Shown piece after piece: positions 54,590 through 64,000 of a stretch of 64,000 nt of DNA; within the stretch, counting starts at the first letter, position 1, and each line of letters starts with the position of its first letter. A model generated the notes under the pieces. The model did not search any database, was not told the origin of the DNA, and saw only the letters and a list, made by a program, of their open reading frames with translations. This DNA comes from Bacillota bacterium (GTDB lineage Bacteria > Bacillota > DULZ01): NCBI GenBank assembly GCA_041655595.1, contig JBBAFB010000002.1:1-64000 (forward strand), written 5' to 3'. A program made the translations under genes and the position numbers.

Positions 54590-55687
54590 ATGACAGTAAA
54601 AGAACTGATTAAGGTATTTATAGTTGATGATTCCGCCTTTATGAGGCGTTTATTTACCACTATGCTGGAAGAAGATCCGGAAATAAAGGTCGTTGGATAC
54701 GCAAGGGAAGGTAGAGAGGCTTTAGAAAAAATTCAAAGATTGAAGCCCCATGTAGTTACACTTGATGTAGAGATGCCCGGCATGGACGGACTGACTACCT
54801 TAAGAGAGCTAATGGATACAAATCCACTGCCGGTAGTAATGCTCAGTTCAACTACGACAGCAGGGGCAACAAATACTATCCGCGCCTTGGAGTTAGGTGC
54901 GGTTGATTTTGTGCCGAAGCCGGAGAACCGGGCAGAGTTGATGCTGTTGGGCACAGAGTTGGTTGCAAAGATTAAGCTTGCTTCCGGTGTAACGGCCGAA
55001 AGAATCATCATGCAGAAAAAATTATGTGATGGTGGGCCTTGCCCTCCAATTTTTCCTTCGGCAGTAACGGCGGCAGATCGCACTGTTCCGGCTTTTTTGG
55101 GATCGAAGGGGCAAATCGAACTGGTGGCTATTGGCACCTCAACCGGCGGACCGGCGGCATTAACAGAGGTTTTTAAAACACTACCTAGGAACCTACCTGC
55201 CGGCGTAATAATTGCACAGCATATGCCCCCGGGATTCACCAAATCCTTGGCCGCAAGGTTAAATGATTTGGGCAGTATGCCCGTTAAAGAAGCCGAAGAT
55301 GGTGATCTCATTCAAAAGGGTAGGGCTTATCTGGCGCCGGCCGGTCTGCAAACAGAAGTTGAGCGCAACAAAGGGGAAGTAAAGTTAAAGGTGTTTGAGA
55401 AACCGCCTTTTCCGACTCTCTATAAACCTTCGGTGGATGTTTTGTTTTTATCGGTGGCAAAAGTTTACGGATCGGCTGCACTGGGGGTTATTATGACCGG
55501 CATGGGTAACGATGGAACCATGGGTTTAAAAGCCATCAAAGAAGCAGCCGGTCAAGTGTTGGCACAGGATGAAGCTTCCTCCATTGTTTACGGTATGCCC
55601 AAGTCTGCAGTAGAAGCCGGAGTTGTGGATAAAATTTTGCCCTTGATAAAGCTGTCGGAGGAGATCGGCAATTTGGTCAAGCGGTGA
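54590..55687 (+). CDS. cheB: chemotaxis response regulator protein-glutamate methylesterase CheB
   Basis: REC domain (FIVDDSAFMRR...VTLDVEMPGMDG) plus the methylesterase catalytic region (GTSTGGP...HMPPGFT...MTGMGNDG). Confidence 0.9.
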   Translation: MTVKELIKVFIVDDSAFMRRLFTTMLEEDPEIKVVGYAREGREALEKIQRLKPHVVTLDVEMPGMDGLTTLRELMDTNPLPVVMLSSTTTAGATNTIRALELGAVDFVPKPENRAELMLLGTELVAKIKLASGVTAERIIMQKKLCDGGPCPPIFPSAVTAADRTVPAFLGSKGQIELVAIGTSTGGPAALTEVFKTLPRNLPAGVIIAQHMPPGFTKSLAARLNDLGSMPVKEAEDGDLIQKGRAYLAPAGLQTEVERNKGEVKLKVFEKPPFPTLYKPSVDVLFLSVAKVYGSAALGVIMTGMGNDGTMGLKAIKEAAGQVLAQDEASSIVYGMPKSAVEAGVVDKILPLIKLSEEIGNLVKR

Positions 55688-55694
55688 TTTTTTT

Positions 55695-55722
55695 TAAAGT
55701 ATTAACAACTTCCTGCCGATAT
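55695..55722 (+). promoter_or_regulatory. sigma-28 (SigD/FliA)-type promoter upstream of flgM (TAAA-N16-GCCGATAT)
   Basis: TAAAgtattaacaacttcctGCCGATAT matches the sigma-28 -35 and -10 consensus. Confidence 0.65.
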
Positions 55723-55756
55723 ATATATCAGGAATAAAAAACAGGTGGTGACTCCA

Positions 55757-56050
55757 ATGAAAATTTTTAGACAGGGATCTATTAACCCCTTTGAAGCTTA
55801 TCAAAAACAGCAAGCTCAGCTTAAAAAGGTGGACACCCAGGACAACCGAGACCCTGCCATTTCAAAGGGGGATATATTGGAGCTTTCTTCTGATATAAAA
55901 AGGATTGAGAACTACGCAAAAAAAATCAAGGATTTGCCTGAAATCAGAGAGGGACTGGTCAAGGAAATTAAGGAGCAGATGAAGGCCGGTACTTATTATA
56001 TTCCACCGGAGAAAATTGCAGAAAATCTTTTAAATTTGATGGGAAAATAG
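55757..56050 (+). CDS. flgM: anti-sigma-28 factor FlgM
   Basis: About 97-aa protein in the FlgM position, with a FlgM-like C-terminal helix (YYIPPEKIAENLLNLMGK). ATG with the SD AGGTGGTGA. Confidence 0.7.
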   Translation: MKIFRQGSINPFEAYQKQQAQLKKVDTQDNRDPAISKGDILELSSDIKRIENYAKKIKDLPEIREGLVKEIKEQMKAGTYYIPPEKIAENLLNLMGK

Positions 56051-56059
56051 GGTGAACTT

Positions 56060-56530
56060 ATGGTTATAAAGGAACTGCAAGAAATTTTGGAAAGCCAGTT
56101 TTTGCTGGCAGAATCAATCCTTCATGCAACAAGAGAGCTGACTGTTTCCCTTGTCGAAGATAACTTGAGTAAAATCATGAGGCGAAACGAAGAACTGGAG
56201 GATTTGGCCGAAGAGATGCAATCCTTGGAGGAAAAGCGCATAGCCGGCCTTGCCAGGGCTATAAAATCCCTAGGGTTGGAACAGGAGCCCACCTTGAGGG
56301 AACTGGCGGAGGAAGTTGCTTTGCCTGATGACCTCCGGCAAGCGGCAAGCAAGCTCAGAAAAAAGTTTCAGGAACTTCAGGAACAGAATCGGTTGAATGA
56401 GCTGCTTTTAAAACAATCTGTCTACTACAATCAAAAAATGCAAATGGCTATTAACCAGGGAAGCAATTATCAGCCGGATGGTAAGTTGGAGCAAAAGAAG
56501 GGGTCTTCCCTGTTGGATCGCAGTGTTTAA
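56060..56530 (+). CDS. flgN: FlgN-like flagellar export chaperone
   Basis: Helical 156-aa protein between flgM and flgK, matching the position of B. subtilis yvyG. Confidence 0.55.
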   Translation: MVIKELQEILESQFLLAESILHATRELTVSLVEDNLSKIMRRNEELEDLAEEMQSLEEKRIAGLARAIKSLGLEQEPTLRELAEEVALPDDLRQAASKLRKKFQELQEQNRLNELLLKQSVYYNQKMQMAINQGSNYQPDGKLEQKKGSSLLDRSV

Positions 56531-56552
56531 CTGATACTAGGGGTGAATTGAA

Positions 56553-58046
56553 ATGTCAGGTACTTTTTTTGGTTTTAATACAGCACTAAAAGGTTTATTC
56601 GCTCAGCAAAAAGCAATGAACACGACAGCCCATAATATAGCCAACGCAGGCACGGAGGGCTATACTCGCCAGCAAGCGGTGATGGAGGCAACCCCCGCTT
56701 TTGCTGTTCCTTCTATGAGCAGGCCCGGGGGCTCGGGGCAGGTGGGTACCGGCGTTAATGTCAATGAGATCCGCCGTATAAGGGATGTTTTTTTGGATAC
56801 ACAAATCAGAAATGAACTGGCCGGCCTGGGAGAATGGGAACAAAAAAGTGAAACCCTGCGGTTGGCAGAAACCGTTTTTATTGAGCCCTCAGATGATGGA
56901 CTGAGCAGTATTTTTGATGAGTTTTGGAAGGGCTGGCAGGAGCTCAGTAAAAATGCCGAAAATATTCCTATCAGGACATCATTAAAAGAAACTGCCATTT
57001 CCTTAGCGGATGCCATTAAGCACTCCTATAATCAATTGAACACCGTGGTTACCGACCTGAAAAGAACGGCAGAGATTAAGGCATTGGCCGTTAATACCTT
57101 GGCTACCCAAATAAATGATTTAAATCAGCAAATAGCTACTATCCAGCTTTCGGGTGATTCCCCCAACGATTTGAAAGACCAAAGAGATAATTTGCTGGAT
57201 AAATTAGCCAGGTTAATTGATTTCACGCCCGAGGATACCACAGTGGAACGCCCGGTGGGGGTCACAAAGAATCCGGACGGCACCTTTGACGTGGCTATGG
57301 GGCATGTGCCCGATGGGCAAATCAGGATTTATATGGGCGATCCAGCGACCAAAATTGAAGACAGAAAAGAGCAAGACTACTTAGTTTACGCTCAACCAAA
57401 TAAGTTTCAAACTATTGCCTACAGTGAAGCCGACAAGGAATTTAAGTGGATGGAAGATGCAAGCACAGTTCCCCCAACCCTTGGCGATACTTTTCCGGTT
57501 TTCACCGGGGAGCTGTTTGGCCTGATGGAAGTTATGGCCCAAATAGAAGAATATATCAGCGATTTAAATGAGCTTGCCGAAAACCTGGCAACGGCCGTTA
57601 ATGAAAAACATCTAAACGGGGTGGACCTTGATGGTCAGCAGGGAGAACAGTTTTTTTACTTTGATTCCGGGAATGCAGCCGGTACCATCAAGGTAAATGC
57701 AGAAATAACAAAAGATGTTACAAAAATTGCTGCTTCAATAGATTCGGCAGGTGGCCATGATGGTGGTGTTGCTTTAGAAATAGCTAAACTGCGCCCGGGG
57801 ATTGACAGGCAGTATGACCAGCTTGTTTCCCGAATCGGTGTGAAGACCAATGAAGCTATCAAACGAAGACAAGGCCAGGAAGTTTTATTAGGACAGTTGG
57901 AATCCAGAAAAGAAAGTATTTCCGGGGTGAGTCTGGACGAAGAAATGGCTTTTATGATGCAGTATCAAAGAGCTTACCAAGCAGCAGCTACAATAATTAC
58001 AACCTTGGACGAAATGGTGCAAACCATTTTGGCTCTTAAAAGGTAA
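56553..58046 (+). CDS. flgK: flagellar hook-associated protein 1 FlgK
   Basis: N-terminus MSGTFFGFNTALKGLFAQQKAMNTTAHNIANAGTEGYTRQ and C-terminus LDEEMAFMMQYQRAYQAAA. Confidence 0.9.
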   Translation: MSGTFFGFNTALKGLFAQQKAMNTTAHNIANAGTEGYTRQQAVMEATPAFAVPSMSRPGGSGQVGTGVNVNEIRRIRDVFLDTQIRNELAGLGEWEQKSETLRLAETVFIEPSDDGLSSIFDEFWKGWQELSKNAENIPIRTSLKETAISLADAIKHSYNQLNTVVTDLKRTAEIKALAVNTLATQINDLNQQIATIQLSGDSPNDLKDQRDNLLDKLARLIDFTPEDTTVERPVGVTKNPDGTFDVAMGHVPDGQIRIYMGDPATKIEDRKEQDYLVYAQPNKFQTIAYSEADKEFKWMEDASTVPPTLGDTFPVFTGELFGLMEVMAQIEEYISDLNELAENLATAVNEKHLNGVDLDGQQGEQFFYFDSGNAAGTIKVNAEITKDVTKIAASIDSAGGHDGGVALEIAKLRPGIDRQYDQLVSRIGVKTNEAIKRRQGQEVLLGQLESRKESISGVSLDEEMAFMMQYQRAYQAAATIITTLDEMVQTILALKR

Positions 58047-58059
58047 GGGGGAATAAGAA

Positions 58060-58950
58060 TTGCGAGTTACTAATAGAATGCTTGTGGATAATGTTCTAAA
58101 AAACATTAACAGCAATTTGGCAAGGTTACAAAAATTAGAATACCAGCAATCTTCGGGACAGATCGTTTCCCGCCCTTCAGATGACCCTATTCGCGTAACG
58201 CAGGCCCTCTACATGAGAAGTAATTTGTCTGAGCAACAGCAGCATATAAAAAACATGGAGGATGCCAAGAATTGGGTAGATGTCAGTGATACCGCCCTGG
58301 ATAATGCCAGTGAAATTATTCAAAGGGCTAACGAAATAGCAATTAATGGTGCCAATGGCACCCTTCCAAAAGAGGCGAGGGATGCCTTGGCCGATGAACT
58401 GGATGAACTAATAGATCATTTAGTGCAAATAGCCAATACCAGTCATGCGGGTAGGTTTATTTTTGCCGGTACAAAAACTACTGCCGTTCCTTTTACAACG
58501 GAAAAGGAAGCAGATAAGATTACGAAGGTTATCTATCAGGGGAACGACGGAGTTTTAGATTGGGAGGTTTCTCCCGATGTAACCTTAGATGTTAACAGGC
58601 CGGGAAATGAGATTTTTGATGGCATTTTTGAAGTTTTAATAGATTTAAGTCAGGATCTACGGGATGCCAATATTGAGGGAATTAATGATGCCATCGAAAA
58701 TTTAAACACAGAGTTGGACAACAATCTCTCTCACAGGGCGATTTACGGCGCTAAATATCGTCGGATGGAAATGGCAATAGCACAGGCAAAAACTTCGGAA
58801 AACAATGTTACCGAATTATTGTCTAACTTAGAGGATATAAATTTGGCAGAGATCAATATGCTTTTATCCATGCAGTCCTACATTTACCAAGCTTCTTTAA
58901 TGACTGCCGCCAAGGTGCTGCAGCCTTCATTAGTGGACTTTATGCGTTAG
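58060..58950 (+). CDS. flgL: flagellar hook-associated protein 3 FlgL
   Basis: Flagellin-like N-terminus (MRVTNRMLVDNVLKNINSNLARLQKLEYQQSSGQ) and C-terminus. 296 aa. Confidence 0.85.
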   Translation: MRVTNRMLVDNVLKNINSNLARLQKLEYQQSSGQIVSRPSDDPIRVTQALYMRSNLSEQQQHIKNMEDAKNWVDVSDTALDNASEIIQRANEIAINGANGTLPKEARDALADELDELIDHLVQIANTSHAGRFIFAGTKTTAVPFTTEKEADKITKVIYQGNDGVLDWEVSPDVTLDVNRPGNEIFDGIFEVLIDLSQDLRDANIEGINDAIENLNTELDNNLSHRAIYGAKYRRMEMAIAQAKTSENNVTELLSNLEDINLAEINMLLSMQSYIYQASLMTAAKVLQPSLVDFMR

Positions 58951-58969
58951 GCAACCGGGGGGTTTTAAC

Positions 58970-59422
58970 ATGCAATTGGATACCAGTCGTTTTGGGCAAA
59001 TACAATATGGTGTTGAGGAGTTAACCGTCTTTAGGGAAGGTTTGCTAGGCTTTGAGCATTTGAAAAATTTTCTTTTAATTCCCTTTGAGGGAAATCCGGC
59101 CTTTTTTTGGTTGCAATCTGTTGAGGATGGGCGGATCGCTTTTTTGATTACGGACCCTTTTTGGTTTTTTCCCGACTATGGCTTGGAAATAGATGAGGAG
59201 CTTAAAGGGAACTTGCAAATAACTGAAAGGAAACAGGTAGTTGTTTATACTATTTGTACCGTGCCGGGCACCAATATTAAAGCTATGACCGCAAACTTGG
59301 TAGGCCCCTTAGTAATTAATGTAGATAACCGTCAAGGTGCCCAATATATTTTAAACGATTATAAATATCATACCAAGCACAACTTGTTTCAAGAAACCCC
59401 TGAAACGGGGGTTGGTAGCTAA
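58970..59422 (+). CDS. fliW: flagellar assembly factor FliW
   Basis: FREGLLGFEH...FFWLQSVEDGRIAFLITDP. Immediately precedes csrA. Confidence 0.85.
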   Translation: MQLDTSRFGQIQYGVEELTVFREGLLGFEHLKNFLLIPFEGNPAFFWLQSVEDGRIAFLITDPFWFFPDYGLEIDEELKGNLQITERKQVVVYTICTVPGTNIKAMTANLVGPLVINVDNRQGAQYILNDYKYHTKHNLFQETPETGVGS

Positions 59423-59423
59423 A

Positions 59424-59654
59424 ATGCTGGTACTTACCCGGAAAATTAACGAAACTTTAATTATTGATAATCAGATAAAAATAACGGTAGCCGCAGTTGA
59501 AGGAGATAAGGTTAAATTAGCTATTGATGCTCCGAAAAACATTCCCGTTTTGAGGCAAGAGATTTTTGAGGCAGTTAAAGAGGCTAATGAAGCAGCCGTT
59601 AATGTTATGATGGATTTGGAAGGATTGTCCCAATTAAAGGATTTGCTTCCTTAG
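59424..59654 (+). CDS. csrA: carbon storage regulator CsrA
   Basis: MLVLTRKINETLIIDNQIKITV...GDKVKLAIDAPKNIPVLRQEI. Confidence 0.9.
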   Translation: MLVLTRKINETLIIDNQIKITVAAVEGDKVKLAIDAPKNIPVLRQEIFEAVKEANEAAVNVMMDLEGLSQLKDLLP

Positions 59655-59749
59655 ACCGGGTTTGAGCAAGGTCCGTTAAGTAAGGCTGCCATAAGGGAAG
59701 CCTTATTATGCTTTTATACATAAATTTTTCTTTCAGGGGGAGGATTAGC

Positions 59750-62700
59750 TTGTTAAAACCAAAAGCTGTTGTTTTTTTCTTATTATTCGCTTTCATCTTT
59801 GGTTTTGGCCTTCTGCAAGCGGGAGTTCTGTTTGCGGAGGAAGAACCGGAAGAGCCGGTAGAGGAGCCTAATCCCCCGAGAATTGAATCTATTAACCCCA
59901 ACTTCGGACAAGCAGGGGATCTAATCACCATCACTGGTAGGTATTTGAAAGATGTAGTCAGCATTAGAATTGGGAACATAACCGTTACCGAAGGTGATGT
60001 TAATTGGAGAACACCCAGTGCTACCGCCGTTGGCTTAGTAATCCCGGATGGCCTTACAGGAGTTGTTGAAATTGAAATCATAAGCAGGGATGGCCACCAA
60101 GCAAAGCTGGAAAGTGCCTTTACTTTTTCTGGGGAGATAGACCCTGTTGTTAGCAGCATTAGCCCAAACATTGGCGGCTTGAGTGGAGGCACCTCTGTTA
60201 CTATTAGTGGAGAAAATTTCAAGCAAAATATTGGCCCGGATGGTAACCCGGTGTTGCCTCAGGTAAGGTTCGGGGAGGTAATGGCCAGGTCGGTCTCTCT
60301 CTTCAATACCAGGGAAATTACGGCCATTACTCCCGGGGCAATAGCGGAAGGCAAGGTTGATGTTTGGCTCAAAAACCCGGTGGAAGGGGCTGAATGGGTC
60401 AAAACAGATCTCGAATTTGAATATGTAAACGAGGGTAAATTGGCCAGAATCTTAAATATTACTCCTAATAGCGGCACCATGCTCGGCGGCACTGAAATAA
60501 CTGTCCAAGGGGTGAACTTCCCGGCCAGCTTGGAAGAAGCAGCAGTAGATCTGTTGATTGGGCGGGTGCCTGTAGAGCGTGGCTCCATAGAAATAGAGCC
60601 CTATGGCTTTTATGATGAGGATGGGAACTTTGTTCAATATTTCGAGGAAGGAAACCCGATCTATATTATTAATGCCAGAACTGACCAGTCCCAGTTATCC
60701 GGCGAACAAGATGTGGAGCTATTAATTGACTGGACAGAGGGCCCGAAGGCAGGCAGGAGCGAGATTGCCCTTTTTGAGAAAGGGTTTACCTACTACTATC
60801 CCAGCACCAAACCGGTAATAGAAAGGGTAGTTAATATTGTAACCCAAAAGGATGTTGGCCCGGTTGGCGGCGGGCATGAGATAGAAATACGGGGTAGCGA
60901 TTTTAGATCCGGCGCCAAGGTTTTTTTTGGTGACAAGGAAGCAAGAATTATCGGATCAGTTACCTTGAATTTAATTAGAGTAGAGTTGCCCCCCAGTGAT
61001 TTTTCTGGGCAAGTGGATGTCTTGGTTGTGAACTACATAGATGACTTTCCCACGGGCCAATTCTTATTTGAAAATGGGTTTACTTACAGAAGGACGGGTA
61101 TGGAGATATCATCTGTAACCCCGAAGGAAGTTTCCACCGTAGGTATTAGAAACTTTACTATCACAGGGCATAACTTTAATGAGGACATTAAAAGGTTAAC
61201 AAAGGTATATTTTGAGGTAGAAAAGCCCGACCCCATGCATCCCGGGGAAACATTCATAGACCAGGAACCTTTAACCATTATTTATTTTGACCCCCAGGCT
61301 GACGGTACTTTGTTGGTTGCAGAATCACCAACTAACCCATCCTCCGGTTTAAAGTACTTGGTAGTTGAAAACTCTTATGGCAGAGTTATTTCAAAGGAAC
61401 CGGTTTTGTTTTACCCGCCGGATATTAAGCCGGAAATCCACACAGTTACTCAAGCTGTTTACGAGGGGGATCAACCTCCTTCGCCAAGGGGCCCAACTGC
61501 AGGGGGGACCAGGTTTATCATTAACGGTAATTATCTGACCACCGGCACCAGGGTTTTCGTAGGGGATGTGGAGGCTGCTGTTGATGAGCGTTTGAGTGAT
61601 TTTACAAGGCTGGAGGTTGTTTCTCCTCCCGGGACTCCCGGTTGGAAGGATGTGCGGGTGCTTAGCCTAACCGGAAACACGGCTACTATGGAAGCAAATC
61701 CGGATGCCGAGGAAGGTTATAAGGGTTTTTATTACTATTCCGAACCTAAAATTAATAATGTCAGCCCAAATAGAGGCAGCATCCTGGGCGATAACATAAT
61801 TACAATTACCGGGGAGCAATTCTACCCCGGAGCTGTAGTTAATTTCGGTTACTTTGATGAGGCAAATAAATTTGTCTCTGTGACAGAGGAAGTCCGGGAA
61901 TTAATAGTTTTAGATAGCAAGACTATCAAGCTTCGGCTGCCCCAATTGAAAGAAGGTGAGATCCTAAGACCTGAGGGCTACCTGGTACAGGTAGTAAACA
62001 CTGATAACAGGTCTACCACCTGGGCTAAAAATTTTCAATACAGAATACCGGATTTGGAAAAGAAGATCAAAATTCACTCGGTGAATCCCGCTATCGGACA
62101 TGTAGATGGAGGGACAAAGGTTGCCATCAGGGGGGAAAACTTTCATCCGGATGCAGTCGTGCACTTTGGTTGGGAAAAAGCGGATATTCAGGCTATTAAT
62201 GATCGCGAAATAGTGGTTATTATTCCCCCCAATTTAGCCGGCGAATATGTGGTGACAGTCAGCAATTATGCGGATACCGGGACCGACACTTGGGAATCCT
62301 TTGAATACCTTGACCCCAGCAGTTTCCCAAAGATTATGGGTGTTTTCCCCGAAGTAGGTCCTGCCAAAGGCGGTACTAATATTATCATCACCGGCATTGG
62401 TTTTTGGAATGGAGCAAAGGTCTATATAGGCGGCCGAATTGCCGAAGATGTGGAAATTTATCATACCTATATTACGGCCAAGACTCCTGCCAGTGATAAG
62501 GCGGGGCCTGTTGATGTCATGGTAATTAATCCTGACGGAGGGGCAGATACCCTTTTTGATGGTTTTACTTATAAGTTTCCTGATAGCGAGCCTAAAATTA
62601 CTTCCGTGAACCCCAATAAAATACCTGCAACAGGTGGTTCCATCGTTACTATTAAGGGGGAAGATTTTAGAAAAGAAGTTGTTGTCTATTTTGGTACCGA

Positions 62701-64000
62701 AAAAGCCGAGATTTTGGAATTTATAGAGCCCGATACAATTATTGTTAAAGCCCCGCCCTATACCCTTGGAGAAGAAGGTATTGTGGATGTGACAGTTCTA
62801 AACCGGGACGGAGGTATTGCCCAATCCCTAGACGAGAGTCAGCAAATACACTACTATTCCGCAAAAAGCGAGCCGATTATTGATAGTATTACTCCGAAAA
62901 GAGGTCCGGCGGCAGGTGGCACCCGAGTAATAATTGAGGGGGATGGCTTTAGCAGCAAAGGTGTTAAAGTTTATTTTGGGGGTAGGGAAGCTACTTTGGC
63001 GGAGGATGCACCCCTGAGATACGACCGGTTGGAAGTCATCACTCCGCCGGGAGTACCGGGGTCGGTTGTTCATGTAACTGTGATGAATACCCATCAGGAT
63101 GCTTTAGGTAGTGCCACCCTTTCTAATGCCTATACCTATGATGCCTCAAAACCGGTTATTGACAGTATTGCCCCCAACCAGGCAACCTACTTAGGAGGTA
63201 CCTTAATTACTATTAGGGGATCAGGATTTACTAAAGCGGGAGCTGAGGTTTATATAGGTGAATGGCAAGGGGAGGAAGTAAGGGTGATTGATTCTGAAAC
63301 AATTACCTTTGTTACTGCCAGAATTGCGGAACGACCTGAGGATTTGACGGAGCTCAGGTGGTGGGATGTTAAGGTTATTAATGCAGATGGCATAGAAGTC
63401 GTTAAAGAAAAGGCTTTTAGATATTTATTTCCTGACAGCGAACCACGAATTATTTCCATTAGCCCGGAGGAAGGGTCAACCCTGGGAGGAATGCCGCTGA
63501 CTCTTATCGGGACAGATTTCAGGCAAAGGGCAAAAGTGGTTATCGGAGGAAAGGAAGCAGAAATTTTAAGCATTGATGACAGTCCGGGTGCAGGTAATGC
63601 TAAAATAATAGTCAAAACCCCCGCTCACACCCCGGGGGAAAAGGATGTAACCGTAATTAACTATGAAGGGGCAATCTCTAATTCAAAAACATTTACCTAT
63701 GTAACACCCCTTAGCTTTCCCGAAATTTTTGAGTTGGACCCAAAGTACGGTTCAACCCTCGGTGATACGGAAGTTATTATAACCGGTATCGGTTTTAAAG
63801 CGGGAGCTAAGGTGTGGTTCGGAATGTATGAAGCAGGTGAAGTTGAATTTATTGATTATAAAACTTTGAAAGTACTTACACCGCCGGGCAATGAGGGAAT
63901 GGCGGATGTGTTGGTACTAAATGAGGATATGGGTCAGGCGGTTCTGGAAAAAGGCTTTAGGTATGTTAAATCTAAAGAATTTGTGGTGAACAGCATTACT
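59750..64000 (+). CDS. very large secreted cell-surface protein made of tandem IPT/TIG (Ig-like) repeats (5' partial: runs off window end)
   Basis: TTG start after the SD GGGGGAGG, followed by a Sec signal peptide (KPKAVVFFLLFAFIFGFGLLQAGVLFAEEE). I hand-translated 61442-64000 with no stop. The unit I.SI.P..G...GGT.I.I.G..F......V.FG repeats every ~90 aa, at least 15 times. Absent from the ORF track because no stop falls inside the window. Confidence 0.8.
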   Translation, partial: MLKPKAVVFFLLFAFIFGFGLLQAGVLFAEEEPEEPVEEPNPPRIESINPNFGQAGDLITITGRYLKDVVSIRIGNITVTEGDVNWRTPSATAVGLVIPDGLTGVVEIEIISRDGHQAKLESAFTFSGEIDPVVSSISPNIGGLSGGTSVTISGENFKQNIGPDGNPVLPQVRFGEVMARSVSLFNTREITAITPGAIAEGKVDVWLKNPVEGAEWVKTDLEFEYVNEGKLARILNITPNSGTMLGGTEITVQGVNFPASLEEAAVDLLIGRVPVERGSIEIEPYGFYDEDGNFVQYFEEGNPIYIINARTDQSQLSGEQDVELLIDWTEGPKAGRSEIALFEKGFTYYYPSTKPVIERVVNIVTQKDVGPVGGGHEIEIRGSDFRSGAKVFFGDKEARIIGSVTLNLIRVELPPSDFSGQVDVLVVNYIDDFPTGQFLFENGFTYRRTGMEISSVTPKEVSTVGIRNFTITGHNFNEDIKRLTKVYFEVEKPDPMHPGETFIDQEPLTIIYFDPQADGTLLVAESPTNPSSGLKYLVVENSYGRVISKEPVLFYPPDIKPEIHTVTQAVYEGDQPPSPRGPTAGGTRFIINGNYLTTGTRVFVGDVEAAVDERLSDFTRLEVVSPPGTPGWKDVRVLSLTGNTATMEANPDAEEGYKGFYYYSEPKINNVSPNRGSILGDNIITITGEQFYPGAVVNFGYFDEANKFVSVTEEVRELIVLDSKTIKLRLPQLKEGEILRPEGYLVQVVNTDNRSTTWAKNFQYRIPDLEKKIKIHSVNPAIGHVDGGTKVAIRGENFHPDAVVHFGWEKADIQAINDREIVVIIPPNLAGEYVVTVSNYADTGTDTWESFEYLDPSSFPKIMGVFPEVGPAKGGTNIIITGIGFWNGAKVYIGGRIAEDVEIYHTYITAKTPASDKAGPVDVMVINPDGGADTLFDGFTYKFPDSEPKITSVNPNKIPATGGSIVTIKGEDFRKEVVVYFGTEKAEILEFIEPDTIIVKAPPYTLGEEGIVDVTVLNRDGGIAQSLDESQQIHYYSAKSEPIIDSITPKRGPAAGGTRVIIEGDGFSSKGVKVYFGGREATLAEDAPLRYDRLEVITPPGVPGSVVHVTVMNTHQDALGSATLSNAYTYDASKPVIDSIAPNQATYLGGTLITIRGSGFTKAGAEVYIGEWQGEEVRVIDSETITFVTARIAERPEDLTELRWWDVKVINADGIEVVKEKAFRYLFPDSEPRIISISPEEGSTLGGMPLTLIGTDFRQRAKVVIGGKEAEILSIDDSPGAGNAKIIVKTPAHTPGEKDVTVINYEGAISNSKTFTYVTPLSFPEIFELDPKYGSTLGDTEVIITGIGFKAGAKVWFGMYEAGEVEFIDYKTLKVLTPPGNEGMADVLVLNEDMGQAVLEKGFRYVKSKEFVVNSIT

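Follow-up and report, generated by a model that had tools for sequence, protein, structure and literature searches.

A giant IPT/TIG-repeat gene downstream of fliW-csrA opens a conserved TIG-SLH1-SLH2 surface cassette with an apparent late-flagellar promoter link

Gene order around csrA

This study concerns a giant gene encoding tandem IPT/TIG repeats (hereafter the TIG gene), which lies directly after fliW and csrA at the end of a 64,000-nucleotide stretch of DNA (hereafter the window) from a Bacillota bacterium (GTDB lineage DULZ01; GenBank assembly GCA_041655595.1, contig JBBAFB010000002.1, positions 1 to 64,000). The TIG gene is the first gene of a conserved cell-surface cassette, TIG-SLH1-SLH2, which appears to belong with the late flagellar genes. 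A sequence-only reading of the window had placed the gene in the slot of the flagellin gene hag and had suggested that it was wired, through a retained leader, into the FliW-CsrA circuit; the first of these claims stands in part, while the second fares less well.

The genes ahead of the TIG gene are those expected of a late flagellar locus, all of them on the + strand. A sigma-28/SigD-type promoter, TTAAAGTATTAACAACTTCCTGCCGATATAT (55694..55724), was found by pattern and position weight matrix (PWM) scans at 24.2 bits, and is followed by flgM, encoding the anti-sigma-28 factor (55745..56050; Pfam PF04316, E 8e-15), flgN (56060..56530; PF05130), flgK, encoding hook-associated protein 1 (56553..58046; FlgK_D1, Flg_bb_rod and Flg_bbr_C), flgL, encoding hook-associated protein 3 (58060..58950; Pfam Flagellin_N only, with its position 3' of flgK), fliW (58970..59422; PF02623, E 3e-40) and csrA (59424..59654; 76 amino acids (aa); PF02599, E 4e-22). 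The series of six genes reported earlier ahead of a giant open reading frame (ORF), at 55745-59654, is therefore confirmed by Pfam throughout. Neighbouring genes from flgM through csrA are separated by no more than 22 nt, and the window CsrA has the C-terminal extension typical of FliW-partnered CsrA. Between csrA and the TIG gene lies a 95-nt spacer (59655..59749, + strand; covered by promoter and Rfam scans), containing a hairpin (59679..59707) followed by the U-rich sequence AUGCUUUUAU and, 5 nt before the TTG start, the Shine-Dalgarno sequence GGGGGAGGA (59736..59744). ORFs further upstream encode CheW, CheA and CheB (Pfam).

The giant TIG-repeat protein

The TIG ORF starts at TTG 59750 and is stop-free through 1417 codons to 64000, where the gene leaves the window with 1417 of its 1792 codons read (59750..64000, + strand; ORF and Pfam). 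An identical sequence occurs in an independent assembly (tblastn, 100% identity), and the ORF therefore contains no hidden frameshift; the interval 59750-61441, where an overlooked frameshift or stop had been a concern, is open and the same in both assemblies. The complete gene was located at L001:10327-15705 (loci are cited here by L numbers), L001 being a 74.7-kb contig of GCA_964547055.1 that was reached through the exact CsrA protein, present on five contigs.

Repeat identity is clear. The part of the protein encoded in the window scores 459.6 bits against Pfam TIG (PF01833; cut-off 20.9) in 12 significant stretches, and the full-length protein 485.9 bits in 14 stretches, confirming the family suggested by eye. 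According to a self-built repeat hidden Markov model, the full protein of 1792 aa carries 15 TIG repeats (residues 43-1492), two of which contain insertions. The earlier count of at least 15 is thus right for the full protein and slightly overstated for the window part, because 14 of the 15 are complete there. The repeats are followed by one FN3 domain and then by a conserved C-terminal domain of ~200 aa. Neither the window part nor the full protein matched Pfam Flagellin_N, Flagellin_C or vWFA (PF00092), and the N-terminus (LLKPKAVVFFLLFAFIFGFGLLQAGVLFA/EEE) resembles a signal peptide by inspection; Pfam and signal peptide together bear out the description of the product as a secreted IPT/TIG surface protein without a flagellin domain. 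Searched for a wall anchor (SLH, LPXTG or CWB), the TIG protein yielded none, its length being taken up by TIG, FN3 and the C-terminal domain.

An in-frame ATG lies at 59708, 42 nt 5' of the TTG and right after the 3' arm of the spacer hairpin. It is probably not used as the TIG start, since no Shine-Dalgarno sequence precedes it.

Downstream genes and the flagellin position

Beyond the window, the TIG gene is directly followed by SLH1 (837 aa; L001:15790-18303) and then by SLH2 (508 aa; L001:18318-19844). SLH1 carries its SLH triplet at the N-terminus, ahead of a series of small DUF5666/CusF/OB-like beta-barrels, and in a profile search of SLH1 against PDB only the SLH part was matched. SLH2 is predicted to form a beta-barrel (~12-14 strands, outer-membrane-like) that precedes a C-terminal SLH triplet. 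Such a predicted barrel would be odd for lineages generally regarded as single-membrane, and its strands look rather polar. Anchoring domains, which the sequence-only reading had recommended looking for downstream, are therefore present as SLH triplets in both conserved neighbours, while the TIG protein itself is anchorless.

Downstream of SLH2 is a terminator-like hairpin with a U tract, after which fliD is preceded by a fresh sigma-28 promoter (L001:19958). The order past this promoter is fliD-flaG-orf-flaG-fliS-flgB-flgC-fliE-fliF-fliG-fliH-fliI-fliJ. The stretch reaching fliJ (L028) was recovered through an SLH2 cluster member; a query with the 58-aa FliD N-terminus gave nothing. When the window and L028 were searched by tblastn with three flagellin queries, no flagellin gene was found from window position 1 to fliJ, a span of ~81 kb (window 1-64000 plus L028:1-21527) that takes in the che genes and the late flagellar genes as well as the first part of the fla operon. 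The possibility that flagellin simply lies further downstream thus found no support as far as fliJ, and the flagellin gene of this genome must lie elsewhere. It follows that the cassette sits at the hag position of B. subtilis. The hag-slot claim accordingly holds as to place, the cassette lying exactly between csrA and fliD, but what occupies the slot is a cassette rather than a lone gene replacing flagellin.

The cassette in related lineages

TIG homologues at 29-54% identity are always followed by two SLH genes. Scans seeded with SLH2, with loci mapped by tblastn, recovered the cassette at 16 genome loci and 64 metagenome loci, in one of two forms: TIG-SLH1-SLH2, or Big5-TIG-X552-SLH2, in which X552 (~552 aa) corresponds to SLH1 minus its SLH part. 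The latter form, with a Big_5-like first gene, was seen at L030, L031, L040-L042, L052, L059, L062 and L091; its carriers are Tepidanaerobacter- and Petroclostridium-like lineages. Among named relatives, the nearest is a metagenome-assembled genome labelled 'uncultured Moorellales' (L012), with an SLH2 89% identical to ours; identities to the window cassette are 74-89% across the three proteins in L012, and 54% in L005. We found no publication describing the TIG-SLH1-SLH2 cassette.

In Moorellales-like lineages the cassette lies within the late flagellar cluster, after csrA or flgL, and usually with flagellin downstream. It follows csrA in the window, L005, L015, L017, L029 and L037, and flagellin is still present downstream of the csrA-adjacent cassette in L029, L037, L015 and L017, as in isolate LX-D (L029; csrA-cassette-flagellin-flaG-fliD). 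Elsewhere it stands between flgL and fliW-csrA (L016, L018 from Neomoorella sulfitireducens, and L035), between flgL and flagellin (L006), or directly before flagellin (L020, L033, L034). It also occurs outside flagellar loci, in Fervidicola, Gelria, Thermosediminibacter, Tepidanaerobacter, Petroclostridium and others. A foreign origin was considered and is unlikely, since the GC content of the cassette (0.43-0.47) resembles that of its flanks.

Sigma-28 promoters at cassette loci

Promoters with the pattern (C)TAAAG-N15-17-(G)CCGATA(T/A) precede flgM, fliD and flagellin genes in the cassette-bearing lineages, and fit the B. subtilis SigD consensus, TAAA-N13-16-GCCGATAW (PMC3865298). A PWM was built from nine such promoters, taken from flgM, fliD and flagellin genes only, and scanned over both strands of 2.43 Mb of non-duplicate loci. 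Outside the training set, 23 hits reached 18 bits or more, eight before flagellar genes and nine directly 5' of a cassette gene, the remaining six entries representing five unrelated sites. Apart from flagellar genes, only cassettes recurred as targets of the motif in this sequence, against a chance expectation of 0.005-0.02 per 400-nt upstream region. Seven of the nine cassette hits precede the first cassette gene (L010, L021, L027, L039, L045, L061 and L062, the last in front of a Big5-like first gene); another, at L085, precedes the first recognizable cassette gene, with no TIG detected upstream, and that at L031 is internal, before X552. At L018 and L035, moreover, a sigma-28 promoter lies directly before the series flgL-TIG-SLH1-SLH2-fliW-csrA.

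These promoter motifs strongly support a regulatory tie of the TIG gene to the flagellar system at the level of transcription, and the cassette generally appears to be a module of the late-flagellar (sigma-28/SigD) class. In the window itself, scans of the 95-nt spacer turned up neither a sigma-70 nor a sigma-28 promoter, and no terminator above chance was seen inside the cassette. Given the lack of a spacer promoter, gaps of at most 22 nt, and a nearest upstream sigma-28 promoter at 55694, the window cassette is probably the distal part of the flgM operon, read through from that promoter, and the spacer presumably belongs to the mRNA as an intercistronic segment.

The best sigma-28-like site from the spacer search, a weak one at 59575-59604 (TTAAAGAGGCTAATGAAGCAGCCGTTAATG; 11.2 bits, with CCGTTA for CCGATA), falls within the 3' end of csrA; for this reason, and because L005 does not share it, it was not adopted. 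Were it active, the TIG mRNA would have a leader of ~140 nt that includes the hairpin.

The hairpin after csrA

The window hairpin has a core of taaggct/agcctta (59681-59705), a folding energy of -13.4 kcal/mol and z = -1.9, with eight of 200 shuffles folding as well. Its minimum-energy fold has the loop AUAAG and pairs two G of the GGA at 59696-59698; an alternative 11-nt loop would expose this GGA. The leader as described earlier, 95 nt long with a hairpin and a GGA near its apex, is therefore real, except that two G of the GGA are paired in the minimum-energy fold and not free in a loop. The GGA that was claimed for the Shine-Dalgarno sequence is also there, and indeed GGGGGAGGA holds two (59739-59741 and 59742-59744).

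Hairpins lie at the same position in relatives, all three without a loop GGA: at L015 (-21.6 kcal/mol, z = -3.4, then UUUUCU), at L029 (-11.2 kcal/mol, z = -4.1, then UUUUUCG) and at L037 (a 6-bp stem, then UUUUU). The window hairpin (-13.4 kcal/mol) is a weaker version with a broken U tract, and happens to contain AAGGGAA. The distance from hairpin to TIG start at L015, L029 and L037 is 30-60 nt. With so little space, transcription must read through the hairpin, and a leaky terminator or attenuator is therefore the best reading of the post-csrA hairpin. For the window hairpin, a weak terminator or attenuator is most likely, to judge from its fold and its counterparts, while the same element is also a candidate CsrA site.

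The motif AAGGG recurs after csrA, in the window (59688-59698, AUAAGGGAAG), at L015:1237-1280 (GCAAGGGUUU) and at L029:579-610 (GCAAGGGUAG), with similar sequences at L005 (GAGGGAAA) and L017 (AAAGGGG). It could be a remnant Shine-Dalgarno sequence, belong to a terminator stem, or serve as a binding site for a protein.

A proposed model

What is seen directly is the gene order, the domain content, a conserved cassette and the sigma-28 motifs. On this basis we propose that TIG-SLH1-SLH2 is a three-gene, wall-anchored surface cassette of the late sigma-28 class, situated at the distal end of the flgM operon and attenuated by the post-csrA hairpin. We give this reading a probability of about 0.6. 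The operon would run from the sigma-28 promoter at 55694 through flgM-flgN-flgK-flgL-fliW-csrA and the cassette to the hairpin after SLH2, with the post-csrA hairpin acting as a leaky terminator or attenuator that reduces read-through into the cassette. The TIG protein would be a secreted rod of ~1800 aa without a wall anchor of its own, held at the surface as a fibre or adhesin by SLH1 and SLH2, which would bind secondary cell-wall polymer. As part of a late sigma-28 class operon, the fibre would have to await completion of the hook-basal body and export of FlgM before it is made. From the neighbourhood and the promoters we infer that the cassette is co-transcribed with the flgM operon, that its three proteins assemble with one another, and that they serve in motility or adhesion.

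Several points weigh against this model. The post-csrA hairpins of L015, L029 and L037 resemble intrinsic terminators and could stop most transcription, and co-transcription of the cassette with the flgM operon is deduced from sequence. The putative interaction of TIG with SLH1 and SLH2 is suggested by gene neighbourhood alone. The similarity to CmoA (see below) is confined to the TIG repeats, the window protein being without vWFA. Finally, the stand-alone cassette at L023 has no sigma-28 motif, and those of Fervidicola and Thermosediminibacter have a weak variant only, TAAAAAG-N15-GCGACAAAT.

Is there CsrA control in addition?

Binding of CsrA to the window TIG leader is possible, and would add an optional layer over sigma-28 control that we regard as a tentative proposal, somewhat doubtful on balance. 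In it, CsrA would bind the hairpin GGA and the Shine-Dalgarno GGAs (59739-59744) and block TIG translation, until FliW, freed at flagellin export, relieved the block. On the one hand, the window leader has three GGA in a hag-like geometry, one near the hairpin apex ~43 nt 5' of two overlapping the Shine-Dalgarno sequence. The flagellin leaders of relatives follow the same grammar, with a GGC-A(A/U)GGA(A/U)-GCC hairpin and a UCA(A/G)GGAGGAA Shine-Dalgarno sequence, and L005, the closest relative for which a leader is available, has a GGA near a small 5' hairpin and another in its Shine-Dalgarno sequence. In addition, csrA lies directly upstream of TIG, the flagellin gene is missing from its usual place in this genome, and for C. 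difficile fliC the Shine-Dalgarno site alone suffices for CsrA control (PMC11898703).

On the other hand, this grammar is common. Among the 51 window genes, 37 have a GGA in the Shine-Dalgarno region and nine an upstream GGA-loop hairpin (stem of at least 6), with eight fitting this slightly looser version by having both. The minimum-energy fold, as noted, pairs two G of the hairpin GGA, and there was no match in an Rfam scan of 55000-60500 with E up to 1. In relatives, the sites are not conserved in orthologous leaders, contrary to the earlier view that CsrA determinants had been retained: the hairpins of L015, L029 and L037 are GGA-free and terminator-like, the TIG Shine-Dalgarno sequence of L029 has no GGA, and the leaders of the stand-alone cassettes L010 and L027 are entirely GGA-free. 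GGA-rich Shine-Dalgarno sequences are found, moreover, where TIG does not follow csrA (L016, L018, L019), flgL-adjacent loci included. Judged by the GGA content of their leaders, csrA-adjacent TIG loci are not distinct from the others.

Descent of the TIG leader from a flagellin leader was considered separately and not upheld, local alignments against four flagellin leaders of relatives giving p 0.05-0.5 relative to shuffles. In relatives that have both genes, flagellin is preceded by a sigma-28 promoter of its own and by a canonical leader, which combines a GGA-loop hairpin with a GGA Shine-Dalgarno sequence. The likeness between the two kinds of leader is one of grammar, and homology is rejected at the sequence level.

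Other explanations

An arrangement that we consider unlikely is one in which TIG-SLH1-SLH2 forms a wall-anchored accessory apparatus for Gram-positive flagella or motility, with a ~60-nm Ig-like fibre mounted on the outer-membrane-like SLH2 barrel, built at a late stage and additionally gated by FliW-CsrA, flagellin having gone from the csrA-fliD interval.

Very unlikely, in our view, is a housekeeping S-layer or wall module whose place near flagellar genes reflects ancestry or chance, and which is driven by an unrecognized promoter and has neither a regulatory nor a functional connection with motility. Such a module would fit the many copies outside flagellar loci (in Fervidicola, Gelria, Thermosediminibacter, Tepidanaerobacter and Petroclostridium), the shared GC content of cassette and flanks, and the lack of a sigma-28 motif at L023. 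It does not fit nine independent high-scoring sigma-28-type promoters directly 5' of cassette genes, nor the 30-60 nt between the post-csrA hairpin and the TIG start, which leave no room for a promoter, nor the persistence of the linkage down to 31-35% TIG identity even though the insertion point varies (after csrA or flgL).

That 59679-59707 is an efficient intrinsic terminator ending the flgM-csrA operon, with the cassette a silent or weakly expressed insertion in this genome, would match the equivalent, terminator-like U-tract hairpins of L015, L029 and L037, but is improbable given a broken U tract in the window (AUGCUUUUAU), an A/U-rich stem base, a terminator scan that made no call, and a 5.4-kb ORF intact in two assemblies together with protein-level conservation (L005, L012), from which we argue that expression is under selection.

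Comparison with known systems

The closest precedent for the window TIG protein, though not an orthologue, is CmoA of Paenibacillus sp. NAIST15-1, a secreted protein of 1064 aa with one vWFA domain and eight IPT/TIG repeats, whose gene is co-transcribed with yvyC-fliD-fliS and which is needed for motility on hard agar (PMC5072692). Both proteins are large, with a signal peptide and tandem IPT/TIG repeats, and both genes lie inside a late flagellar cluster; CmoA, co-transcribed with late flagellar genes, is a proposed flagellar-regulon member with an extracellular role in flagellum-driven surface motility. However, cmoA is located downstream of fliS and is not accompanied by SLH genes, whereas the window gene lies after csrA, has two SLH partners, and encodes 15 TIG repeats in place of eight plus vWFA, an FN3 domain and a distinct C-terminal domain. 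Homologues of the window protein include Paenibacillus proteins with TIG and vWFA, which share 26-30% identity with it.

The flagellin gene hag of B. subtilis offers a second comparison. Its leader reportedly takes part in a Hag-FliW-CsrA partner switch (Yakhnin 2007; Mukherjee 2011; summarized in PMC11898703). The order flgM...fliW-csrA is the same, and the hag leader, ~90 nt long, likewise has a GGA near a hairpin apex and another in the Shine-Dalgarno sequence. In contrast to the window gene, with its spacer lacking any promoter that we could find, hag mRNA starts at its own SigD promoter; the TIG product is not a flagellin and cannot bind FliW as Hag does; and the GGA sites vary among the TIG leaders, as described above.

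Surface proteins are familiar members of SigD regulons. In B. subtilis the autolysins LytC, LytD and LytF belong to it alongside the flagellar genes. A C. difficile sigD mutant has lower expression of the surface adhesin gene cbpA (PMC3865298), and cbpA and CD0514 are examples of surface protein genes switched on with the late flagellar genes from TAAA-N13-16-GCCGATAW promoters (PMC3865298). While those are single autolysin or adhesin genes, we see here a three-gene, SLH-anchored TIG cassette, apparently maintained under sigma-28 control in many Clostridia.

Parts that are joined in intimin/invasin inverse autotransporters, or in the OmpM/SlpA SLH-barrel tethers of two-membrane Terrabacteria (PMC10628300, PMC9388160), are split here over separate proteins. 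SLH2 was considered as an OmpM-type tether, which has an N-terminal SLH domain, a C-terminal membrane barrel and a two-membrane host, and was set aside: its predicted barrel precedes the SLH triplet, an order opposite to that in OmpM, and its hosts are generally regarded as single-membrane.

Little is known of the surface structures that Gram-positive S-layer bacteria build together with their flagella, and CmoA of Paenibacillus has so far been the only studied relative. A late-flagellar promoter signature on a three-gene, wall-anchored Ig-like fibre cassette in many Clostridia points to a conserved surface structure coupled to motility. Thermophilic acetogens are among its carriers, as are lineages known from biogas and bioreactor metagenomes. 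If SLH2 does fold as an outer-membrane-type barrel, it would bear on the reuse or retention of such barrels in Firmicutes regarded as single-membrane. For students of CsrA, the locus is a simple candidate for a second direct target of FliW-CsrA, and were the gating true, the TIG fibre would become the first structural target of the partner switch other than flagellin.

Further features of cassette loci

The interval from fliD to fliS holds two flaG-like genes and a 139-aa ORF without a family match. The locus of Neomoorella sulfitireducens SLA38 (L018:373-14806) has an unusual late-gene order, consisting of a sigma-28 promoter, flgL-TIG-SLH1-SLH2-fliW-csrA, a second sigma-28 promoter and flgM-flgN-flgK, so that flgL is separated from flgK. 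At L015:1290-1380 the part of TIG that encodes the signal peptide is out of frame with the body of the ORF, either through an assembly error or a real frameshift. Fervidicola and Thermosediminibacter have in common clusters of DnaA boxes just 5' of the cassette (for example TTATCAACAGCTGTGGATAACTCTGTGGATAACGTGGATAA and GTGGATAAGTTATCCCCAATGGGGATAA); perfect and near-perfect boxes (TGTGGATAA / TTATCCACA) lie 5' of the TIG gene at L008:534-830 and L011:9597-10020, and the conserved TAAAAAG-N15-GCGACAAAT element is found downstream of the clusters in both genera.

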